Positions 15,732 through 24,740 of a DNA stretch of 64,000 nt are shown here, piece by piece. Each line of letters begins with the position of its first letter. Position 1 is the stretch's first letter. Source of the DNA: an uncultured Pseudomonadales bacterium. Lineage in GTDB: Bacteria; Patescibacteriota; Microgenomatia; UBA1400; Chazhemtobacteraceae. The translations under genes were made by a program, and so were the position numbers. The stretch is from positions 651,786 through 715,785 of the forward strand of contig CAYQZQ010000001.1 of assembly GCA_964422035.1 (NCBI GenBank). Reading direction: 5' to 3'. The notes below the pieces were generated by a model that made no database searches, was not told where the DNA came from, and saw only the letters and a list, made by a program, of their open reading frames with translations.

Positions 15732-17576
15732 ATGAGACCGGATGGATTGAGCATTGAGCATTTTCAGTTAGTGGGAGCGGCTAGTGGTGAAAACTGGTCC
15801 CAGGTGAGAGTGGTGGTGCCCTTAAATAAGGAAGAGTTGAAGATGAGAGGGGTGTTGGCAGTGGTAGTGCGAGTGAAAAATGTTGAGGAGGCAGCTGGAG
15901 TAGGAGTCGAGATGTTACAAGATTTGGTAGAGAAGTTTCAGTCTGAGGCGGGGGTGGGTCGATGGGAGTGGGTAAGGCAAGCGGCTGCGTGGTTGGAAGA
16001 AGAGAGGGGAGAAGGCATAGTGGCGGTGATGGTGCCAGTTGATGGGAAAAGGGCGATGTATATTGCTGGGCGGGGTGATATGGTGGTTGAGTTACAAAGA
16101 GAAGGAAATAGTAAGTTGTTATGGGGGAGAGGACAAGATAAGGCTGTGTCGGGGTGGTTGCAAGAGGATGATGAGATAATGCTAGGGACGGATACTTTTT
16201 ATGATAAGGTGTGGAGTAATTTGGATATAGAAGTAGGAGAAGAAAGAATAGAAGAAGCTGGTACGAAAATTACCAGTTCAGAGAATGGAGCTTTAATGGC
16301 GGGATTGGTTCTTGAAGTGGGAGAGATGAGGGAGGAAAGTGAAGAGGTAGCTGGAGAGATAGAGGAAAGTAGAGAGCCAGAGAGAAAAGTTAAAAGAAAG
16401 TGGGCAGGTGAGGGTAAAAAAAAGAAGAGATCTTGGTTGAATCTGCGGAAAAGGAAAAGTTCTGCAGTGAAGCTTTTCCCAGCAAGTAAGGAGGAGTGGA
16501 GTTTGAGGATAGGGGTGGTGTTTTTGATTATTTTTGTAATTAGTGTGTCGTTGGGGGCCTGGCGGAAGAGTAAGCGGGAGAGGCTGGCTGAGTTTAAGGG
16601 GGTGGCGGAGCCGATTGAGTATAATTTGCAAGAGGCGCAAAAACTATTGGAGGTAAATCCAGTAAGGGCAAGAAGTTTAGTGGTTGAAGCTCAAAAATTA
16701 GTTGAGGAACAGGGAGATAGATTTGTGGAAGGAGGTCAGGAGAAAGAATGGGAGAATTTGGTGTCAGAGGTTGATAAAGTGTGGACTGAGGTGTCGGGAG
16801 AAAAAACTTTACAGGCTGATAAGTGGTTAGATTTGTCGGTGGTAAAAGAGGCGGTTGAGGTGAGAGAGATAGTGGTTGAGGAAGATAGTTTGTGGGTAAG
16901 AGATGGAGAAGATAGTCTGCTGGTGATTAATTTGGATGATAAAAGTAGCCAGGTTGTAGCAGGAGGTGAGGTGGCAGGAAAGGCTAGAGCGTTGGGGGTT
17001 TTGGGTGAGGCAGGATTGGTGGGCAAAGACAGTGGAGTGTGGCAGGTGGAAAAAAGTGGAGATGTGAGCCAGGCATTTGAGATAGAAGGAATAAATCTGG
17101 TTGATTTGGAGGGGTACGCGAATAACATATATGTTTTGGCAGATGAGGGTGTTTTTAAGTATCCGGGAATAGAAGAGGGGTTTGGTAAAAGGAGAAGATA
17201 CCTGGGAGCAGGTGAAGAGGTATCAGTAGGTCAGGTTTTGGAGATGGAGATTGATGGTGATATCTGGGTTTTAGGTGAAAAAGGAGAGGTGGAAAGGTTA
17301 AGCAGAGGCCAGAAAACAAACTTTTCTTTGGAGGGAATGGTGGGAGAGTGGCAGGAACCTAAGGGACTGATGGTTGATAAGGAAAGAGGCAGTGTTTGGG
17401 TATGGGATAAAGGAAGAGGGGAAGTGATAGAGTTTGGCAGAGAAGATGGTCAGTATAAACATGCATGGAAGGAGGAGAAGTTGAAAGATTTTGAAGTAGT
17501 GGAGTGGGATGGAGAGAGAAATAGGCTGATAGCAACTGAAGGAAGCCAGCTTTGGGTGATGGAGATAAAAGAGTAA
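15732..17576 (+). CDS. membrane protein: N-terminal PP2C-like phosphatase-like domain, single TM, C-terminal repeated Trp-containing (beta-propeller-like) exported domain
   Basis: MYIAGRGDMVVEL and DDEIMLGTDTFYDKV resemble the PPM motifs ANAGDSRAVL and LILASDGLWDV. TM segment VVFLIIFVISVSLGAW. Repeated LWV/VWV blades. Confidence 0.4.
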   Translation: MRPDGLSIEHFQLVGAASGENWSQVRVVVPLNKEELKMRGVLAVVVRVKNVEEAAGVGVEMLQDLVEKFQSEAGVGRWEWVRQAAAWLEEERGEGIVAVMVPVDGKRAMYIAGRGDMVVELQREGNSKLLWGRGQDKAVSGWLQEDDEIMLGTDTFYDKVWSNLDIEVGEERIEEAGTKITSSENGALMAGLVLEVGEMREESEEVAGEIEESREPERKVKRKWAGEGKKKKRSWLNLRKRKSSAVKLFPASKEEWSLRIGVVFLIIFVISVSLGAWRKSKRERLAEFKGVAEPIEYNLQEAQKLLEVNPVRARSLVVEAQKLVEEQGDRFVEGGQEKEWENLVSEVDKVWTEVSGEKTLQADKWLDLSVVKEAVEVREIVVEEDSLWVRDGEDSLLVINLDDKSSQVVAGGEVAGKARALGVLGEAGLVGKDSGVWQVEKSGDVSQAFEIEGINLVDLEGYANNIYVLADEGVFKYPGIEEGFGKRRRYLGAGEEVSVGQVLEMEIDGDIWVLGEKGEVERLSRGQKTNFSLEGMVGEWQEPKGLMVDKERGSVWVWDKGRGEVIEFGREDGQYKHAWKEEKLKDFEVVEWDGERNRLIATEGSQLWVMEIKE

Positions 17577-17585
17577 AATAAGGGT

Positions 17586-18026
17586 ATGACAGTTGTAAAT
17601 AGAAAAGCCAAGTATGAGTATGAAATTTTGGAAACCTGGGAAGCAGGGATAGTTTTGGATGGTTGGGAAGTGAAAAGTGCTAAAAAAGATCAGGTGTCTT
17701 TGTCTGGCTCAAGGGTGACGGTTCGAGATGGAGAGCTTTATGTAGTTGGAATGCAGATTAATCCGTATCAAAAACAGGTTGAAGAGCAAAAACCAGACAG
17801 GTCTAGAAAGCTTCTTTTATCAAAAAAAGAGATTGATAGTATTGTGGGTAATCTGAGTCGAAAAGGATTGACCGTGGTGCCTTTAAAGTGCTATAATAAG
17901 GGTGGATTGGTGAAGTTAGAGATAGGGTTGGTAAGGCGAAAAAAAGAATGGGAGAAGAGAAGGAAGATAAGGAAAAGAGAAGCAGAGAGAAAGGTCAAAA
18001 ACTTATTAAAAGTACATAAAAAGTGA
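17586..18026 (+). CDS. smpB: SsrA-binding protein
   Basis: KAKYEYEILETWEAGIVLDGWEVKS matches SmpB. The tmRNA lies immediately downstream. Confidence 0.85.
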   Translation: MTVVNRKAKYEYEILETWEAGIVLDGWEVKSAKKDQVSLSGSRVTVRDGELYVVGMQINPYQKQVEEQKPDRSRKLLLSKKEIDSIVGNLSRKGLTVVPLKCYNKGGLVKLEIGLVRRKKEWEKRRKIRKREAERKVKNLLKVHKK

Positions 18027-18280
18027 ATAATAAAGTTAAAGTTCTCTGGAATAAAGTAATGCCTGATTGTGTTTCTGGTTTGAGTTGGGGAAAAGAGCTG
18101 GGAAACATAGAAGGAGAAGAGGAATGGAAAATAACTTTGGAGAGCAACCTTTCAGAACTAGATGAAGAAGAGTTTGATGTGTTTTTGGCTCAGTTGGTTA
18201 TTAAAGCTTCGGGTAAAGGGGTGGTAGGCAAGGATTTGACAGGCACGATTGAGTTAATGAGAAAATGGCGCAATAAGTAG
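18023..18280 (+). CDS. small hypothetical protein
   Basis: ORF only. ATGA overlap with smpB. Confidence 0.3.
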   Translation: MNNKVKVLWNKVMPDCVSGLSWGKELGNIEGEEEWKITLESNLSELDEEEFDVFLAQLVIKASGKGVVGKDLTGTIELMRKWRNK

Positions 18281-18317
18281 ATTTTTGAGAGATTTTTGAT
18301 ATAATATAGGTTCAGTT

Positions 18318-18715
18318 GGGGACGTTTCGGCTTCGACGAGTATGTACTTTAACAACAGCAAGCTAAGCTGAGTCAACTTATGAAACTGACTTAAAACAAA
18401 ACATGAGGATTCTATCCTTGCTAACATAACTTTCTCGGAAGGGGAAGATTATGTTCCGGCCACTTCAGGCTATGCTTACGCATATGCTTAAAAGTGAAAG
18501 GCGTTTTTAGGTAAGATGTCTGGGGCAAGCCTAAAAGCGTTTACTTACTCAGACTGCAAAAATCAGAGCTGACCTAACTGATTTTTAAGAATTTTGGTCA
18601 AACTTTATGTTGAGGTTTGTTTATTGGCTGGCATAAAGCATTACAATAAACTAAGCTTGTAGAAGTTGTTTAGGATCATGTTCGGACGTGGGTTCGAATC
18701 CCACCGTCTCCACCA
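18318..18715 (+). ncRNA. ssrA: tmRNA (SsrA)
   Basis: 5' end GGGGACGTTTCGGCTTCGACG pairs with the 3' end CGTCTCCACCA. The T-arm GGTTCGAATCC is present. Candidate tag ORF 18420..18491 reads ANITFSEGEDYVPATSGYAYAYA*. Confidence 0.85.
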
Positions 18716-18721
18716 AGAAAA

Positions 18722-18746
18722 CCTCGATCTTTGATCGGGGTTTTTT
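18722..18746 (+). terminator. rho-independent terminator after tmRNA (CCTCGATC-TTT-GATCGGGG + T6)
   Basis: 8-bp stem, 3-nt loop, T-run. Confidence 0.6.
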
Positions 18747-18766
18747 GTTTGGGGTAAAGTTAAGTT

Positions 18767-19432
18767 GTGGGTTGGTTTTGGAAGTTTTTATATCCTAAGT
18801 ATTGTTGCTTGTGTGGAGAGATGGGGGAATGGTTGTGTGAGAGTTGTAAGAGTGATTTGAGATGGATTGAGTTGAGGTGTCCTTCTTGTGGTAGGGAAAC
18901 AGTAGGAGGGAGAAAACATGAGAAATGTGAGGGGGATTTGTCTGGCTTGATAGCTATTTATGATTACAGGCAGGAAAAGGTGCGAGGTGTGGTAAAAGCG
19001 TTTAAGTATAAGTTGGTAAAAAGTATGGGAGGGTTATTGCTTGAAGAAGTGAATTTGGGGGTGAAAAGAGGGGAATTTGATTGTCTGGTGCCGGTGGCAC
19101 TTCACAGAAGAAGAGAAAATTGGCGGGGTTTTAATCAGGCTGAGGTTCTGGCGGAGCTGATAAGTGAAAGAGTGGGTATTAGGGTGGAGGATGTTTTGGA
19201 GCGGGTTAGGTATACACAGCCTTTGGTGGAGCTGGAGAATTATAAAAAGAGAAAGGAAGAGATTAAAGGAGTGTTTAAAGTAAAAGATGAATGTAGAGGT
19301 AAAATAAGGGATAAAAGAGTACTATTAGTTGATGATGTGTTTACAAGTGGAAGTACGATGAGGGAGGCAGCAAAGACGTTAAAAAGAGCAGGGGCAAGAG
19401 AGGTGTGGGGCTGGGTATTGGCGGGTAGATAG
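18767..19432 (+). CDS. comFC: ComF-family (ComFC-like) phosphoribosyltransferase/competence protein
   Basis: N-terminal double Cys pairs (CCLCGE..CESC, CPSCGRE). C-terminal PRTase motif VLLVDDVFTSGSTM. Confidence 0.7.
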   Translation: MGWFWKFLYPKYCCLCGEMGEWLCESCKSDLRWIELRCPSCGRETVGGRKHEKCEGDLSGLIAIYDYRQEKVRGVVKAFKYKLVKSMGGLLLEEVNLGVKRGEFDCLVPVALHRRRENWRGFNQAEVLAELISERVGIRVEDVLERVRYTQPLVELENYKKRKEEIKGVFKVKDECRGKIRDKRVLLVDDVFTSGSTMREAAKTLKRAGAREVWGWVLAGR

Positions 19433-19458
19433 TGGATAAATGGTAAAATAGTGGGGCT

Positions 19459-19543
19459 GGTGGGGTGCTCCGAATTGGTTAAGGAACCGGTCTTGAAAAC
19501 CGGCGCCCGCAAGGGCTTGTGGGTTCGAGTCCCACCCCCACCG
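19459..19543 (+). tRNA. tRNA-Ser (anticodon TGA), type II with long variable arm
   Basis: Acceptor GGTGGGG/CCCCACC, anticodon loop CTTGAAA, T-loop TTCGAGT. The D-arm appears to carry one extra nucleotide. Confidence 0.75.
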
Positions 19544-19587
19544 CAGATATAGTTGAGTATTGTTTTGGGTTATGTTAGGGTGAAGGT

Positions 19588-20502
19588 ATGAGGGCAATAA
19601 TGGAAGAGAGGGTTCAAAGAGATTTTTTTAGAAAGATTAAGAATGTTTCGGGTTTATCAAACAGAGAATTGGGAAAGTTGGTTGATCTTAAAGCAAACTC
19701 TTTTGGGGATTGGAGTAGAGGGAGAACGAGTCCAACATATACGAAGTTGAAATATTTAGGAAATCGATTTGGTGTCAAGATTCCTGTCAATATAGAGACA
19801 AGGTGTGAAAATTGGGGACAAGTTAGAGGGGGAAAGGTTTCTCAGAAGATGAGAAAAATGGCACCTGAAAAGTATGAGGGAAGTGGTGTGCTATTAAGAA
19901 ATAAATTTAGCGATCCTTTTTGCTCGAAAGAGTTAGCTGAGTTTGTGGGCATTGTCTTGGGTGATGGTTGTTTGACCGGAAGTCAGTTGCAGATAACCTT
20001 GAATTCTGTAGCGGATGAAAAGTATGTTAAATATGTAAAAAGTTTGATATTGAGATTGTTTAGATACAAAGCAGGTATTTATAAGAAAAAAGATAGTAAA
20101 GCAGTTGTGGTGTGTGTGACAGGAGTTAATTTTGTAAATTTAATGAAGAAATATGGCTTGGAGACAGGAGATAAAGTTAGAAATCAGGTGTCTGTTCCAG
20201 GCTGGATTAGAAAGACAAAGAAGTTTAGAAAATCCTGCTTGAGGGGTTTGGTGGATACAGATGGTGGAATTCATTGGCATAAATATAAAATTCAAAATAA
20301 GCAATATAGTTATCTAAAATTGTGTTTTTCGAATAGGTCTGTGCCTTTAAGAAAATTTGTTTTTGAAACACTTGAGATGATGGGATTTAATCCCAAAATG
20401 GCAATGAATAAGCATGTGTGGTTGTATTCTGATGAAGAGTCTCGAAAGTATCTGAAAGTAATTGGTAGCTCTAATTTTAGGCTGAACAGGATGATTAGAT
20501 GA
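19588..20502 (+). CDS. HTH + double-motif LAGLIDADG homing-endonuclease-like protein
   Basis: FVGIVLGDGCL and LRGLVDTDGGIHWHK motifs. The N-terminus is HTH-like (LSNRELGKLVDL). Confidence 0.65.
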   Translation: MRAIMEERVQRDFFRKIKNVSGLSNRELGKLVDLKANSFGDWSRGRTSPTYTKLKYLGNRFGVKIPVNIETRCENWGQVRGGKVSQKMRKMAPEKYEGSGVLLRNKFSDPFCSKELAEFVGIVLGDGCLTGSQLQITLNSVADEKYVKYVKSLILRLFRYKAGIYKKKDSKAVVVCVTGVNFVNLMKKYGLETGDKVRNQVSVPGWIRKTKKFRKSCLRGLVDTDGGIHWHKYKIQNKQYSYLKLCFSNRSVPLRKFVFETLEMMGFNPKMAMNKHVWLYSDEESRKYLKVIGSSNFRLNRMIR

Positions 20503-20517
20503 TATAATTACTTGCGA

Positions 20518-20607
20518 GGAGACGTGCCCGGAATTGGTATCGGAGCGCCCTGCTAAGGCGTCGCCCTGTTTAAGGGCTTGTGGGTTCGAGTCCCACCGTC
20601 TCCGCCA
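20518..20607 (+). tRNA. tRNA-Ser (anticodon GCT)
   Basis: Acceptor GGAGACG/CGTCTCC+G+CCA, anticodon loop CTGCTAA, long variable arm. Confidence 0.75.
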
Positions 20608-20635
20608 AGATGAATGCAGGTGAGTTTGTGATAGG

Positions 20636-21187
20636 ATGAAACTAATGCCCGAAGAAAAAAAACAAGAGAGTCAAACGGCTCAACCAAGCATAAAAGGAGA
20701 AGAAAAGACTTTATTGGAGTGGAAAAGCTTGGAGAGACCTTTTAAGGAGAGAGGAAGGGATTTTTATAGTACGGTTTTGGTATTGGCGATACTGGTGGGA
20801 GTTATTTTATTCTTTATAGAAGGGCTAATGCCGGTGTTGTTGGTGGCTTCGGTAGTATTTGTGGTGTTTGTTATGTCTAAGGCAGAACCTAGGGTAGTTG
20901 AGCACAAAATAACTACCAGAGGTATAGAGACAGAAAGAAATAAGTTTTGGTGGGATGAGTTGATAATTTTTTGGTTTGAGAAAAAATGGGGGAATGATTT
21001 GGTGCATGTTTTAACTAGAAGAAACTGGCCAAGACAGATACTGCTGGTGTTGCCAGAGAGTGGTGAGGTGAAGAAAGAGAGGATTAAGGAAGTATTGGGT
21101 ACTTATTTGCCTTTGGAGAAACCACCGGATTCGTGGTTGGATAAGGCTGTTAATTGGTTGGGGGAGAAAGTGCCTTTGGAAGAGTAG
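20636..21187 (+). CDS. hypothetical two-TM membrane protein
   Basis: ORF plus hydrophobic segments. No assignable motif. Confidence 0.4.
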   Translation: MKLMPEEKKQESQTAQPSIKGEEKTLLEWKSLERPFKERGRDFYSTVLVLAILVGVILFFIEGLMPVLLVASVVFVVFVMSKAEPRVVEHKITTRGIETERNKFWWDELIIFWFEKKWGNDLVHVLTRRNWPRQILLVLPESGEVKKERIKEVLGTYLPLEKPPDSWLDKAVNWLGEKVPLEE

Positions 21188-21360
21188 AGTTTTGGGTTTT
21201 GATATGAAAGCTAGATAAAATTTGTAGACAAGCCCCTAGTGAGAAGAGGAGATTTAAAAGAAGTATGGGTGGAATTTGTGATTTGTATTATAATAGGGTT
21301 GCCTTAAGAGACAAAATAATGTTCTTTTATCAGGATCTAGCCGATAGGCTAGTTGGAGAA

Positions 21361-21432
21361 GTCCCCGTAGTTTAATGGATAAAACACGGCCCTGCGGAGG
21401 CTGAGCTACAAGTTCGAATCTTGTCGGGGACA
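21361..21432 (+). tRNA. tRNA-Arg (anticodon GCG)
   Basis: Acceptor GTCCCCG/CGGGGAC, anticodon loop CTGCGGA, T-loop TTCGAAT. Confidence 0.65.
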
Positions 21433-21440
21433 CAATTTTT

Positions 21441-21525
21441 GGAGGGTTGGCCGAGTGGTTTAAGGCGCCGATTTCGAAAGTCGGTGGGCTTTATGCCCGC
21501 ACAGGTTCGAATCCTGTACCCTCCG
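21441..21525 (+). tRNA. tRNA-Ser (anticodon CGA)
   Basis: Acceptor GGAGGGT/ACCCTCC, anticodon loop TTCGAAA, long variable arm. Confidence 0.75.
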
Positions 21526-21612
21526 CATAAAACTTCTTTTGCTTATGAGTGGTACTTTAGAGTTTAGCTTGAAGGTATAAATGAGGCTGAATGCGATATA
21601 ATAGTAGTTATT

Positions 21613-21695
21613 GGAGGAGTCGCATAGTGGTCGATTGCACGAGCTTGGAAAGTTCGAGCCGCAAGGCTTCGTGGGTTCGAATCCCACCTCCTCCG
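21613..21695 (+). tRNA. tRNA-Ser (anticodon GGA)
   Basis: Acceptor GGAGGAG/CTCCTCC, anticodon loop TTGGAAA, long variable arm. Confidence 0.75.
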
Positions 21696-21784
21696 CAGAG
21701 CAAATGCGTGTGATAGTTATGCAGATTGTTTGATTAGTTGAGCCTTGAAGCGGCTGAGTTTGAATTATGAGGTAAAATAAAGGC

Positions 21785-23554
21785 ATGGATCAGGTAGAAC
21801 AGGTGAAGCGCAAAGTTGATGTGGTAGAAGTAGTTGGAGATTATGTGGCTTTAAAAAAGGCAGGGAGAAATTTTAAAGGCTTGTGTCCTTTCCATAGTGA
21901 GAAGACGGCTTCTTTTATGGTTAATCCTGAGTTGCAGATATATAAATGCTTTGGGTGTGGAAAAGGAGGAGATGTGATTTCGTTTATTGAGGAGATGGAG
22001 GGAGTTGAGTTTAGAGAGGCGCTGGAGATGTTGGCTGATAGAGCGGGGGTCAAGCTTAAACCGATGGGTGAAAGGAAAGACAGGAGTGAGCAGAAAAGAA
22101 TGATTGAAGCACATGAGCTGGCAAAAGAGTATTACCATTATTTATTGACTGAGCACAAAAGGGGTAAAGAGGCTTTAAAGTACTTAAATGATAGAGGGGT
22201 GGGAGAGAAATTAATTGAGGAGTTTAAATTGGGTTATGCCTTGGAAAGCTGGGAAGGATTGTATAAGTATTTGGTTAATAAGAAGAATTTTGAGCCGGAG
22301 TTGTTAGTTAGGGCAGGGCTTTTAATTAAGTCCAGTAAGGGAAAGGGTTATTATGACCGGTTTAGAGGAAGAGTGATGTTTCCTTTAATTGATCACAGAG
22401 GAAGAAATTTGGCTTTTGGAGGAAGGATACTGCCCGGTCTTGGTGATGAAAAAACTCCCAAGTACATTAATTCTCCAGAGACAGATATTTATCACAAGTC
22501 GGAGATGTTGTATGGCTTTTATCAGGCTAAGCAAGCGATAAGAAAGAATGATCGAGTAGTGGTGGTTGAGGGAGAGATGGATATGATTAGTAGTTACGGA
22601 GCGGGGGTAACAGAGACGGTGGCTATTAAGGGAACGGCTTTAACTATTCAGCAGGTAAGGTTGATAAAAAGATTGACTAAGAGAATGGTGTTGGCTTTGG
22701 ATGCGGATGAGGCAGGCCAGGATGCATCTAAGCGAAGTATTGAGGTGGCAGAAAAACAGGGAGTTAATGTTAGAGTGGTAGCAATTGAGGGAAGCAAGGA
22801 TCCAGATGATGTGGTGAGAAAAAGTAAGGGTAAATGGAAAAAAATGGTTGAAAATGCTCAAGAGGTCTATGACTATTTAATTGAAAAAGCAAAAGAAAGG
22901 CATAATCTTGAGAGTGGGGAAGGTAAAAATGGGTTTACAGAAGAGATTTTACCGGTCCTGGCTAGAATTAGGAACCAGGTAGTGATGGCTCATTATCTTA
23001 AGAAGGTGGCAGACACTTTAGATGTTAGTGAGGATTGGGTGGTAAGAGAGGTTGAGAGAAAAATTAAAGCGGGTGAGGTGGGAGAAAAGGAAAGAGAGAT
23101 GGAGAAAGAAGAGAGCAAAGAGAAGGAAAGTAGAAAAGAACAGCTATTGAGGGAGATCTGGGCGTATTTATTACGGGTTGACAGGGAAGTGGGGAGTGAG
23201 GCAATAGGAAGACTGAGAAAGATAAAAGTAGGGTCTAAACTAAGGAAGCTTTTGAACAACTGGGAGGAGTACTTTATAAAGAAAGATAAAGGTAGGGTAG
23301 CTGAGTGGATAAAACAATTACCTGATGAGTTGAAAAAGGTGCCACAAGAGGCGTATATGAAAGAGGTAGAGGAGGAGAGAGTTAAGTGGAATCTGCAGTT
23401 GGCAATTGATGAGTATGAAGAGCTTTTGTTGCGCAACAGGCTCAGAGAGTTGGAAAACAAGATAGGAAAAGCAGAGAAGGATGAGGATGAGAAAGCGTTG
23501 GAAGAAAACCGAACAGAGTTTGTAAGATTGAGTAAGAGATTGTCTGAAATTTGA
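21785..23554 (+). CDS. dnaG: DNA primase
   Basis: CHC2 zinc finger CPFHSEKTASF...CFGCGKGGD. Toprim motif VVVVEGEMD. Confidence 0.9.
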   Translation: MDQVEQVKRKVDVVEVVGDYVALKKAGRNFKGLCPFHSEKTASFMVNPELQIYKCFGCGKGGDVISFIEEMEGVEFREALEMLADRAGVKLKPMGERKDRSEQKRMIEAHELAKEYYHYLLTEHKRGKEALKYLNDRGVGEKLIEEFKLGYALESWEGLYKYLVNKKNFEPELLVRAGLLIKSSKGKGYYDRFRGRVMFPLIDHRGRNLAFGGRILPGLGDEKTPKYINSPETDIYHKSEMLYGFYQAKQAIRKNDRVVVVEGEMDMISSYGAGVTETVAIKGTALTIQQVRLIKRLTKRMVLALDADEAGQDASKRSIEVAEKQGVNVRVVAIEGSKDPDDVVRKSKGKWKKMVENAQEVYDYLIEKAKERHNLESGEGKNGFTEEILPVLARIRNQVVMAHYLKKVADTLDVSEDWVVREVERKIKAGEVGEKEREMEKEESKEKESRKEQLLREIWAYLLRVDREVGSEAIGRLRKIKVGSKLRKLLNNWEEYFIKKDKGRVAEWIKQLPDELKKVPQEAYMKEVEEERVKWNLQLAIDEYEELLLRNRLRELENKIGKAEKDEDEKALEENRTEFVRLSKRLSEI

Positions 23555-23642
23555 ATAAGCAGGCTAGAGATGATATATTGTGTTAGTGTTGTTAGTAGTT
23601 ATAAACCGCTTCCTATGGGGAGTGAATTTTTAGGTTGTTAAG

Positions 23643-24740
23643 ATGTTTAAACAGAAAAAAATAAGTGGTAAGCAAATAAGGGGAATCGAAGAGCTTTTGA
23701 AGAGAGGAAAGGAACAGGGTTTTGTAACAATTGATGATATGTTAAGAGTATTTCCTGAAGCTGAGAAACAGGTAGGTTATATAGATTTTTTGTATAAAAA
23801 ACTTTTAGAGTCAGATATTGATGTATTTGAAGAAGTCGAGAAAGAGAAAGATGAAGCCGACATCTCGGAGGATTTAGAGAAAGAGCTTGAGTCTTTGAGT
23901 TCTATGGATGATAAATCTGTAAAGGATCCAGTAAGGATGTATTTAAAAGAGATAGGAAGAATTCCTTTGCTTAAGCGGGAAGAAGAGATTTCCTTGGCCC
24001 AAAAAGTTGACAAGGGGGATAAGGATGCAAAAGACAAATTAACCTCTTCTAACTTGAGACTGGTGGTTTCGATTGCCAAGAAATACATTGGTAGAGGAAT
24101 GAGCTTTTTGGACTTGATTCAAGAAGGTAATAAGGGTTTGATTAGAGCAGTTGAAAAGTATGACTGGACTAAGGGATACAAGTTTTCTACTTATGCTACT
24201 TGGTGGATCCGTCAGGCAATTACTAGGGCTATTGCTGATCAGGCAAGAACAATTCGAATTCCGGTTCATATGGTTGAGACGATAAATAAGGTAATGAAGA
24301 GCCAAAGACAGTTAATGCAGAATTTAGGTAGGGAGCCAACTCCAGAAGAGGTAGCTGAGGAGGTTAATATGAAGGAAGAGAAGGTTAGAGAGATATTTAA
24401 GATTGCACAAAAGACTACTTCTCTGGAAACTCCTATTGGGGATGAAGGAGATAGTCAGTTAGGTGACTTTATTGAAGATGAAAATACTGCTACTCCTTAT
24501 GAAAATACAAGTGTTCAGTTGTTGCGTGAGAATGTGGGACAGGTTTTGGATAGCTTGTCAGACAGAGAAAAAAAGGTGTTGATGATGAGGTTTGGTTTGC
24601 AAGGAGAGAAGCCAAAGACATTGGAAGAGGTAGGAAGCAAATTTGGAGTAACGAGAGAGAGAATCAGACAAATTGAAGCGAAAGCTTTAAGGAAACTTAG
24701 ACATCCTTCTCAGAAGAAGAGGATGCAGGATTTTCTTTAA
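23643..24740 (+). CDS. rpoD: RNA polymerase sigma-70 factor
   Basis: [11 protein letters not shown] (region 1.2), [19 protein letters not shown] (region 2), region 4 HTH. Confidence 0.9.

Follow-up and report, generated by a model that had tools for sequence, protein, structure and literature searches.

We describe here a gene from an uncultured bacterium; it is probably a free-standing cassette that encodes a homing endonuclease and is specialised on the flank lying 5' of tRNA-Ser genes. It lies between two tRNA-Ser genes of the window, by which we mean the whole stretch of 64,000 nucleotides analysed (contig CAYQZQ010000001.1, positions 651,786 to 715,785). As judged from its sequence and its predicted structure, the product is apparently a LAGLIDADG DNA-cutting enzyme of the single-chain, two-motif type, preceded by an N-terminal helix-turn-helix (HTH) domain. 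Adjacency to tRNA-Ser is a defining, family-wide property, far from chance. The cassette has relocated between tRNA-Ser genes of one conserved gene block and is patchily distributed. An earlier note on this DNA had considered a selfish homing element targeting a tRNA-proximal site, and this is the proposal that we favour, on the free-standing position of the gene, its intact catalytic residues, the switching of sites and the patchiness. All data are metagenome assemblies, and several of the depositors' taxon labels (e.g. 'Pseudomonadales') are clearly unreliable.

The endonuclease and its tRNA-Ser partner

The coordinates of the open reading frame (ORF), its parts and its flanks are reported in table 1.

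Table 1. Features of the endonuclease cassette and its flanks in the window (aa, amino acids; nt, nucleotides).
Feature	Position	Strand	Details
tRNA-Ser(TGA), intact left neighbour	19459..19544	+	ARAGORN; Rfam tRNA 52.2 bits
Putative cassette promoter region	19553..19587	+	read from sequence; may also be operator
-35-like TTGAGT	19553-19558	+	begins 8 nt after 3' end of tRNA-Ser(TGA)
Family-specific motif TTTGGGTTATGTTAG	19564-19578	+	in 17-nt spacer; sequence
-10-like TAGGGT	19576-19581	+	then 6 nt to ATG
HTH-LAGLIDADG endonuclease ORF	19588..20502	+	304 aa, ATG start, stop codon included in span
N-terminal helix-turn-helix domain	19606..19770	+	residues ~7-61; AlphaFold helices H7-21, H25-31, H36-43, H51-61
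Linker deletion junction	19813..19818	+	in-frame loss of ~25-30 aa after W76; alignment of homologues
LAGLIDADG motif 1, LAEFVGIVLGDG	19933..19968	+	residues 116-127; catalytic Asp126 codon 19963-19965
LAGLIDADG motif 2, CLRGLVDTDGG	20236..20268	+	residues 217-227; catalytic Asp225 codon 20260-20262
Extended -10-like element TGATATAAT	20500..20508	+	9 nt before tRNA-Ser(GCT); putative promoter, read from sequence
tRNA-Ser(GCT), intact partner directly downstream	20518..20607	+	ARAGORN; Rfam 47.9 bits

The 304 codons run without interruption, and both ends of the ORF lie in intergenic DNA, with a complete tRNA gene on either side. The adjacency to both tRNA-Ser genes given in the earlier note stands; the exact gaps are 43 nt from tRNA-Ser(TGA) to the ORF and 15 nt from the ORF to tRNA-Ser(GCT), in place of 45 and 16 nt. 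The gene had also been said not to lie inside an intron, which is borne out: both tRNA-Ser genes are intact by ARAGORN and Rfam, and the Rfam search over positions 17000-22500 returned tRNAs and one transfer-messenger RNA (tmRNA) only, with no group I or group II intron or other RNA element. An intron or intein context was rejected on these grounds. An identical protein, P0001, is present in another assembly, where it is called from the second ATG and has 300 aa. Relatives start with MSRIVF or MTRVVF at the position matching 19588; these starts, together with the -10-like hexamer exactly 6 nt upstream, make 19588 the likely start rather than the second ATG of P0001.

The motifs GIVLGDGCL and GLVDTDGGIHW, read earlier from the 304-aa translation, are present at residues 121-129 and 220-230. 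Residue conservation was assessed first for 23 aligned proteins and then for the full set of 80 family proteins taken from genomes. Residues E118, G125, D126 and G127 are invariant in 80/80 proteins, as are K196, D223, T224, D225 and G226, so that the inspection of catalytic acidic residues proposed in the earlier note finds D126 and D225 both present and invariant. The profile search proposed with it passes marginally: Pfam LAGLIDADG_3 (PF14528) scores 24.3 bits against a cut-off of 22.5. The same model is matched by 20 of the 23 family members, with a best E-value of 3e-11. Searches of NCBIfam and of PDB sequences gave matches confined to the endonuclease part of intein-containing proteins.

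The AlphaFold model, built from 23 homologues, has a mean predicted local distance difference test score (pLDDT) of 88.9 and consists of a four-helix N-terminal domain, a linker and a two-lobed core. The core has the pseudo-symmetric fold expected of a single-chain enzyme, with alpha-beta-beta-alpha-beta-beta-alpha occurring twice. Its top Foldseek match is I-Tsp061I (2dch; E 3.5e-11, probability 1.0). Other matches are the VMA and PI-PfuI intein endonucleases, the bI3 maturase, I-AniI, I-DmoI and WhiA (8dy9_I); the probability is also 1.0 for I-AniI, I-DmoI and PI-PfuI, at a sequence identity of only 14-21% among the structural matches. Membership of a defence system was rejected, PADLOC giving only weak HTH and 'HEase' matches. 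In PHROGs, only a generic 'endonuclease' family was matched.

The HTH-like region assigned earlier to the N-terminus is supported by the four confidently modelled helices of this domain and by a few homologues that match HTH_3, HTH_28 or Xre-like-HTH. The window protein itself matches HTH_31 below threshold (Pfam, E 0.088), and the PDB sequence matches of its N-terminus to DdrOC/XRE proteins are weak. Positions of the R37/D41/W42 type are conserved in the 71 HTH-bearing family members. The segment lost from the window copy belongs to a Gly/Lys-rich linker that is kept by all other members, HTH-bearing and HTH-less. In the window model, pLDDT is low at residues 75-81 and the linker is disordered.

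The family is large, with members in Patescibacteria and Omnitrophota. A protein search returned 289 relatives, the best non-identical match in it being only 45% identical, and among 1.84 billion representatives a profile recovered 738 clusters (50% identity, E <= 1e-30). A scan of species-representative genomes gave at least 489 confirmed loci, in Microgenomates, Parcubacteria, Kazan, Saccharibacteria-labelled and Omnitrophota assemblies.

The tRNA partners were counted for 83 copies in 80 fetched loci (L001-L080) out of the at least 489. A tRNA-Ser gene on the same strand starts between -100 and +45 nt from the stop codon in 75 of the 83 copies (median +10), compared with 14 of 622 other long ORFs of the same tRNA-rich loci. 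The ORF end falls inside the tRNA gene in 25 of these 75 copies. The partner is tRNA-Ser(GCT) in 50 cases, GGA in 12, ACT in six, CGA in six and TGA in one. The eight exceptions comprise three contig ends and five copies with an opposite-strand tRNA-Ser directly beside the ORF. The earlier view of tRNA genes as integration hotspots is therefore right as to tRNA adjacency and wrong as to a generic hotspot, the association being specific to tRNA-Ser. No conserved partner gene other than the tRNA was seen. On a contig from a viral collection a family member again precedes tRNA-Ser(GGA); the distant LAGLIDADG genes checked in that collection have no neighbouring tRNA-Ser.

A literature search, with most subscription journals outside its coverage, found no link between LAGLIDADG proteins and tRNA-Ser; in the papers found, LAGLIDADG endonucleases of the candidate phyla radiation (CPR) are described inside rRNA genes only. 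The family is thus apparently undescribed.

A class II tRNA-Ser(ACT), with A34 and the loop TTTACTAAA, is well folded and occurs alongside tRNA-Ser(GCT) in L001 (5864-5951) and L002 (6991-7079). It is also present in L004, L005, L007, L008, L010, L016, L028, L069, L109 and L112, and is absent from the window. This tRNA is the partner of one endonuclease subclade. A serine tRNA with A34 is unusual for bacteria.

Cassette borders, relocation and copy number

The endonuclease gene appears to carry its own expression signals, a -35/-10-like pair that is conserved in relatives and ends 6 nt before the ATG. In the window's clade, the layout is TTGACA, 5-6 nt, TTCGGGTTTTGTTAGTAT, 6 nt and the ATG (L001, L002, L004, L005, L007, L008, L014, L015, L023, L028, L032 and L085). 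The motif TTYGGGTWNWRTTAG occurs once in the window and once each in 14 loci, directly upstream of such ORFs wherever checked. Of 71 members, 48 have a -10-like hexamer 5-7 nt upstream of the ATG; among other ORFs, the share is 26%. The endonuclease ORF is likely to be read from a leaderless mRNA, and leaderless mRNAs seem common in these genomes. Among other ORFs of at least 150 aa in L001-L080, 17% have a TAnnnT hexamer exactly 6 nt before the ATG.

At the 3' end, the TG of TGATATAAT is part of the TGA stop codon of the ORF. The sequence (T)GNTATAAT is found some 7-16 nt before tRNA-Ser genes, whether these are preceded by the ORF or not. A consensus promoter scanner reported neither of the two proposed promoters; both assignments are based on conservation across loci, from which we infer a promoter function for the two elements.

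Outside the window's clade, the start of the ORF falls within, or immediately after, a stretch similar to the initial 16-25 nt of a tRNA-Ser gene. The Parcubacteria copies read TATAAT GGAGGT ATGGCTGAGTCGGTT, the ATG of which is the start codon, and the Microgenomates 'clade B' copies read TATCAT GGAGGTGTCGTCTAGCGGAT ATG. In L003, a 19-nt stretch (GGAGGAGTCGCATAGTTGG) matches a real tRNA-Ser 5' end exactly, and in L052 a 22-nt stretch matches one closely. A matrix of tRNA-Ser nucleotides 1-16, built from 180 tRNA-Ser 5' ends, was scored on 71 upstream regions: 21 of them exceed the 99th percentile of the controls, where 0.7 would be expected, and in about 45 loci the best match is in the same register. 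These counts are inflated by shared ancestry and represent few independent cases. When each upstream region is compared with the downstream tRNA of its own locus, only about seven loci are significant. No such fragment is present at the window copy, where the clade-specific promoter motif takes its place. In our reading, the fragments either were left when a cassette inserted into a tRNA-Ser gene or recombined with one, or are a copy of the enzyme's recognition sequence retained over the cassette's own promoter. The latter possibility is suggested by the precedent of I-TevI, whose operator resembles its homing site (PMC2988022).

A simple neighbour-joining tree of the family contains a GGA clade that mixes Microgenomates, Parcubacteria, Kazan and others, an ACT clade, GCT clades for each superphylum and an Omnitrophota clade that is mostly HTH-less. 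The subclades follow the isoacceptor (GCT, GGA, CGA, ACT).

Relocation of the cassette is seen in L014, which has the same syntenic block as the window. There, the spacer between the TGA and GCT genes is empty (24 nt, holding only the tRNA's -10 element), and a cassette with the protein and promoter of the window's clade lies between the CGA and GGA genes, before tRNA-Ser(GGA). The corresponding CGA-GGA spacer of the window, before tRNA-Ser(GGA), is empty. Relative to L014, the insertion in the window consists of promoter and ORF, at about 19553-20499, between the end of tRNA-Ser(TGA) and the -10 element of tRNA-Ser(GCT). The closest known N-terminus (MRVIMSEKDQRAFF), with a near-identical promoter, is that of L085, where it is sited after tRNA-Arg(CCG) and the neighbouring protein is about 70% identical to that of the window. 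Two copies are present in L033, and L018 has a full copy before GGA and a 100-aa fragment before GCT. There are also HTH-less variants, which retain the linker.

Within the empty spacer of the window before tRNA-Ser(GGA), at 21527-21612, the sequence AGGCTGAA...GATATAAT resembles the 3' end of the ORF, AGGCTGAAC...TGATATAAT (20479-20508). This could be the footprint of a lost cassette; the match is short and may be due to chance.

Loci L081-L083, L107-L109, L112 and L086 were chosen through the 183-aa neighbour protein and hence blind to the presence of the endonuclease; a single-protein metagenome scan with this neighbour gave only three relatives, at about 40% identity. The site before tRNA-Ser(GCT) is empty in L014, L081-L083 and L107-L112. 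The comparison of relatives suggested in the earlier note thus shows that the ORF is not at this position in all of them. Full tRNA-Ser clusters without any copy, as judged by tblastn with 80 queries and by the family hidden Markov model on six-frame translations, are found in L107/L108, L109 and L112. The closest homologue seen, a 61% identical copy, lies before GCT in L086, where the neighbouring protein is 75% identical. From the tRNA-Ser(GCT) of L086 (480-577), 43 nt are missing, namely the variable arm, the T arm and the 3' acceptor strand, and its anticodon loop is altered. Either this gene is a tRNA pseudogene, or the sequence is an artefact of assembly.

Homing, domestication and other explanations

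In the favoured explanation, the cassette is compact and free-standing. It would comprise a promoter of its own and an ORF, probably leaderless, whose product joins an N-terminal HTH to a single-chain nuclease core with two motifs. The enzyme would recognise the DNA of a tRNA-Ser gene or of its promoter region; cassette-free alleles would be cut, and recombinational double-strand-break repair would copy the cassette in. Recognition and cutting of tRNA-Ser alleles would account for the specificity for tRNA-Ser as well as for the tRNA-Ser 5'-like fragments seen at the left edges of many copies. The conserved sequence over the cassette's own promoter may act as an operator, much as I-TevI represses itself. 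The cassette may also be hard to lose cleanly, since the end of the ORF is overlapped by the -10 element of the tRNA or by the tRNA's first bases.

The best structural and sequence matches are archaeal and intein enzymes. I-Tsp061I, I-DmoI, PI-PfuI and the VMA intein endonuclease domains share with the window protein the two-motif pseudo-dimeric fold and the acidic residue closing each motif. They are encoded in rRNA introns or inteins, whereas the window enzyme is free-standing with its own putative promoter, has an additional N-terminal HTH, a basic linker and a tRNA neighbour, and resembles them only at the low sequence identity given above. The LAGLIDADG endonucleases of the CPR lie in 16S and 23S rRNA genes, often in group I introns, and tRNA is never mentioned (PMC11270868). 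They come from the same host group and the same superfamily and likewise target highly conserved structural-RNA genes; the tRNA-Ser family differs in lying outside any gene, at tRNA-Ser 5' flanks.

In function, the nearest analogues are SegB of phage T4 and the autorepression of I-TevI. SegB is a free-standing GIY-YIG enzyme that is sited between tRNA genes and targets the tRNA region, and promoters of essential neighbours embedded in the seg and mob endonuclease genes favour their retention (PMC2988022). The window gene is also free-standing between conserved genes, and the putative -10 element of its tRNA overlaps the stop codon. The T4 enzymes are of the GIY-YIG or HNH type, reside in phage genomes and spread in co-infection, whereas the tRNA-Ser family is of the LAGLIDADG type, resides in cellular chromosomes and has a single tRNA identity (Ser) as partner across at least two phyla. 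I-TevI is an autorepressor, and the sequence overlapping its own promoter resembles its homing site in 15/20 nt (PMC2988022). By analogy, the tRNA-Ser 5'-like sequence or the family-specific motif over the putative cassette promoter may serve in repression. I-TevI differs in having a C-terminal HTH-containing DNA-binding domain and a GIY-YIG catalytic domain.

Several observations weigh against homing. The ratio of non-synonymous to synonymous substitution (dN/dS) is 0.06-0.17 in the closest pairs, with dS near saturation for most pairs; in the least saturated pair, L034/L039, dN is 0.109 and dS 0.79. In this pair, the endonuclease is 81% identical, against 59% for SmpB and 57% for ComF, and in L017/L018 it is 66% identical, against 39% for DnaG and 72% for RpoD. 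In syntenic pairs, the endonuclease is conserved as much as, or more than, the flanking housekeeping genes. Nearly all family copies are intact, and only one degenerate copy was found among 105 tRNA-Ser genes unassociated with the family. This conservation pattern looks more like that of a host gene than that of a typical decaying homing endonuclease gene; the selection and synteny also fit long vertical inheritance. No strain-level difference in presence or absence was seen, the nearest relatives by protein search (L084 and L113; 88% and 86-89%) being short contigs that end before the site. The 5' sequences of tRNA-Ser(GCT) with and without the cassette show no consistent difference from which a cleavage site could be derived, and the tRNA downstream of the cassette is intact, which leaves the escape of the host allele from cutting unexplained. 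To these points are added the missing part of the conserved linker in the window protein and the shared ancestry behind the matrix counts.

The earlier note had offered a domesticated DNA-binding protein as the other choice. In this explanation, the hosts would have kept a nuclease or DNA-binding factor for a cis function at tRNA-Ser genes, nearer to HO or WhiA, either for HTH-mediated control of tRNA-Ser transcription or for starting gene conversion or repair within the tRNA-Ser cluster. It stays alive through strong purifying selection (dN/dS ~0.1) and a conservation equal to or better than that of SmpB, ComF and DnaG in syntenic pairs, which are unusual for a purely selfish endonuclease gene. 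The invariance of catalytic and many other residues in 80/80 proteins, the breadth and age of the family (738 clusters, at least 489 species loci), a tree that broadly tracks the superphyla, the intactness of almost all copies and the presence of WhiA among the structural matches point in the same direction. We nevertheless consider domestication the less probable course, though a serious competitor, given the patchiness, with full tRNA-Ser clusters lacking any copy in L107/L108, L109 and L112, the different isoacceptors that the cassette precedes in close relatives, the second copies, the fragment and the HTH-less variants, and the lack of any conserved partner gene except the tRNA. The known domesticated LAGLIDADG regulators, such as WhiA, are also without catalytic residues, which the family proteins retain. 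WhiA combines a LAGLIDADG fold with an HTH, but its catalytic acids are lost, its HTH is C-terminal and it is conserved throughout its lineages. The tRNA-Ser family keeps its catalytic residues without exception, carries the HTH at the N-terminus and is patchily distributed, with no copy in L107-L109 and L112. The Pfam WhiA model does not match the window protein, and the WhiA-type regulator class was rejected on catalytic Asp, HTH position, distribution and this Pfam result. A further reading, that of a long-retained and catalytically active nuclease whose function is coupled in cis to the tRNA-Ser genes of these ultrasmall bacteria and which is not merely selfish, appears rather unlikely to us.

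It is improbable that the window copy is a decaying, non-functional relic, retained only since its 3' end abuts the promoter of tRNA-Ser(GCT). Such decay would fit the unique in-frame loss of some 25-30 aa of conserved linker, the weak -10 element (TAGGGT, against TAGTAT in relatives), the 61% identity of the closest homologue in a locus where the neighbouring protein is 75% identical, and a second HTH gene, 700 bp downstream, that is already a remnant in this genome. The ORF is unbroken over 304 codons, however, all examined invariant residues of the family are kept (including D126, K196 and D225), both domains are modelled with high confidence and the identical P0001 is present in another assembly. 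An action on RNA, as a maturase-like or processing factor for a possibly co-transcribed tRNA-Ser precursor, is highly improbable. The fixed same-strand position directly 5' of tRNA-Ser, often overlapping the tRNA, and the LAGLIDADG maturases (bI3, I-AniI) among the structural matches would be in its favour. Against it, no intron or other RNA element is found near the tRNAs, which are standard cloverleafs and appear to have their own -10 element; related genomes have tRNA-Ser genes without the protein, and the existence of such relatives already implies that tRNA-Ser matures normally in its absence; and the full DNA-cleavage active site would be unnecessary for maturase function. A homing endonuclease cassette specialised on tRNA-Ser flanks is thus the reading that we retain.

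The surrounding gene block and wider meaning

The cassette is part of a wider block with the gene order SmpB, tmRNA, ComF-like protein, tRNA-Ser cluster, DnaG and RpoD (17586-24740). Within 1.1 kb further downstream of the cassette's partner there are genes for tRNA-Arg(GCG), tRNA-Ser(CGA) and tRNA-Ser(GGA), predicted by ARAGORN, so that all four tRNA-Ser isoacceptor genes and tRNA-Arg(GCG) lie inside 2.3 kb of the block. The presence of every Ser isoacceptor gene in one cluster is unusual in itself. Most of the block from SmpB to RpoD is also present in many Microgenomates loci (L014, L054, L017, L109 and L112). The tmRNA gene, at 18318-18715, is found by Rfam with 126 bits and was not reported by ARAGORN on the window.

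The remnant of a second HTH gene lies at 21186-21375 of the window (cf. L084 649-1341 and L113 650-1342). In L084 and L113, which have 86-90% nucleotide identity, an intact 230-aa ORF lies between the gene for the 183-aa membrane protein and tRNA-Arg(GCG) and ends inside this tRNA. In the window, some 550 bp have been deleted internally, and only the upstream motif (AGAGTTTTGGGTT...) and about the last 170 nt are left. The 230-aa family is marked by an HTH_7-like N-terminus and by LYWAEG as an invariant motif, and directly precedes tRNA-Arg(GCG) in L084, L113, L114 and L116/L117. It is a second, analogous HTH family similarly locked to tRNA-Arg(GCG). Neither hhalign (7%) nor Foldseek (no match) confirmed it as a LAGLIDADG protein. 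A small ORF of 83 aa with a GIY-YIG domain (L116 4281-4532; L117 3971-4222) follows tRNA-Ser(GGA) at a distance of about 170 nt in the tRNA cluster of these two loci, and is another nuclease-like gene of the region.

Free-standing LAGLIDADG genes in bacterial chromosomes are poorly studied. The family accounts for a recurrent 'hypothetical protein' annotated beside tRNA-Ser in genomes of Patescibacteria and Omnitrophota. It also constitutes a pool of compact HTH-LAGLIDADG scaffolds, possibly useful as meganucleases, for which the candidate targets are known tRNA-Ser flanks. If the enzyme were coupled in cis to its tRNA genes, it might control tRNA-Ser expression or drive the duplication, conversion and isoacceptor turnover of tRNA-Ser, and such a role could help to explain the clustering of all Ser isoacceptors and the additional tRNA-Ser(ACT). 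The family extends over at least hundreds of lineages in two phyla, has one fixed partner, tRNA-Ser, and shows signs of mobility although it is as conserved as housekeeping genes. It is a natural system in which to study how a homing endonuclease can last over very long times, and where selfish genes end and domesticated ones begin.

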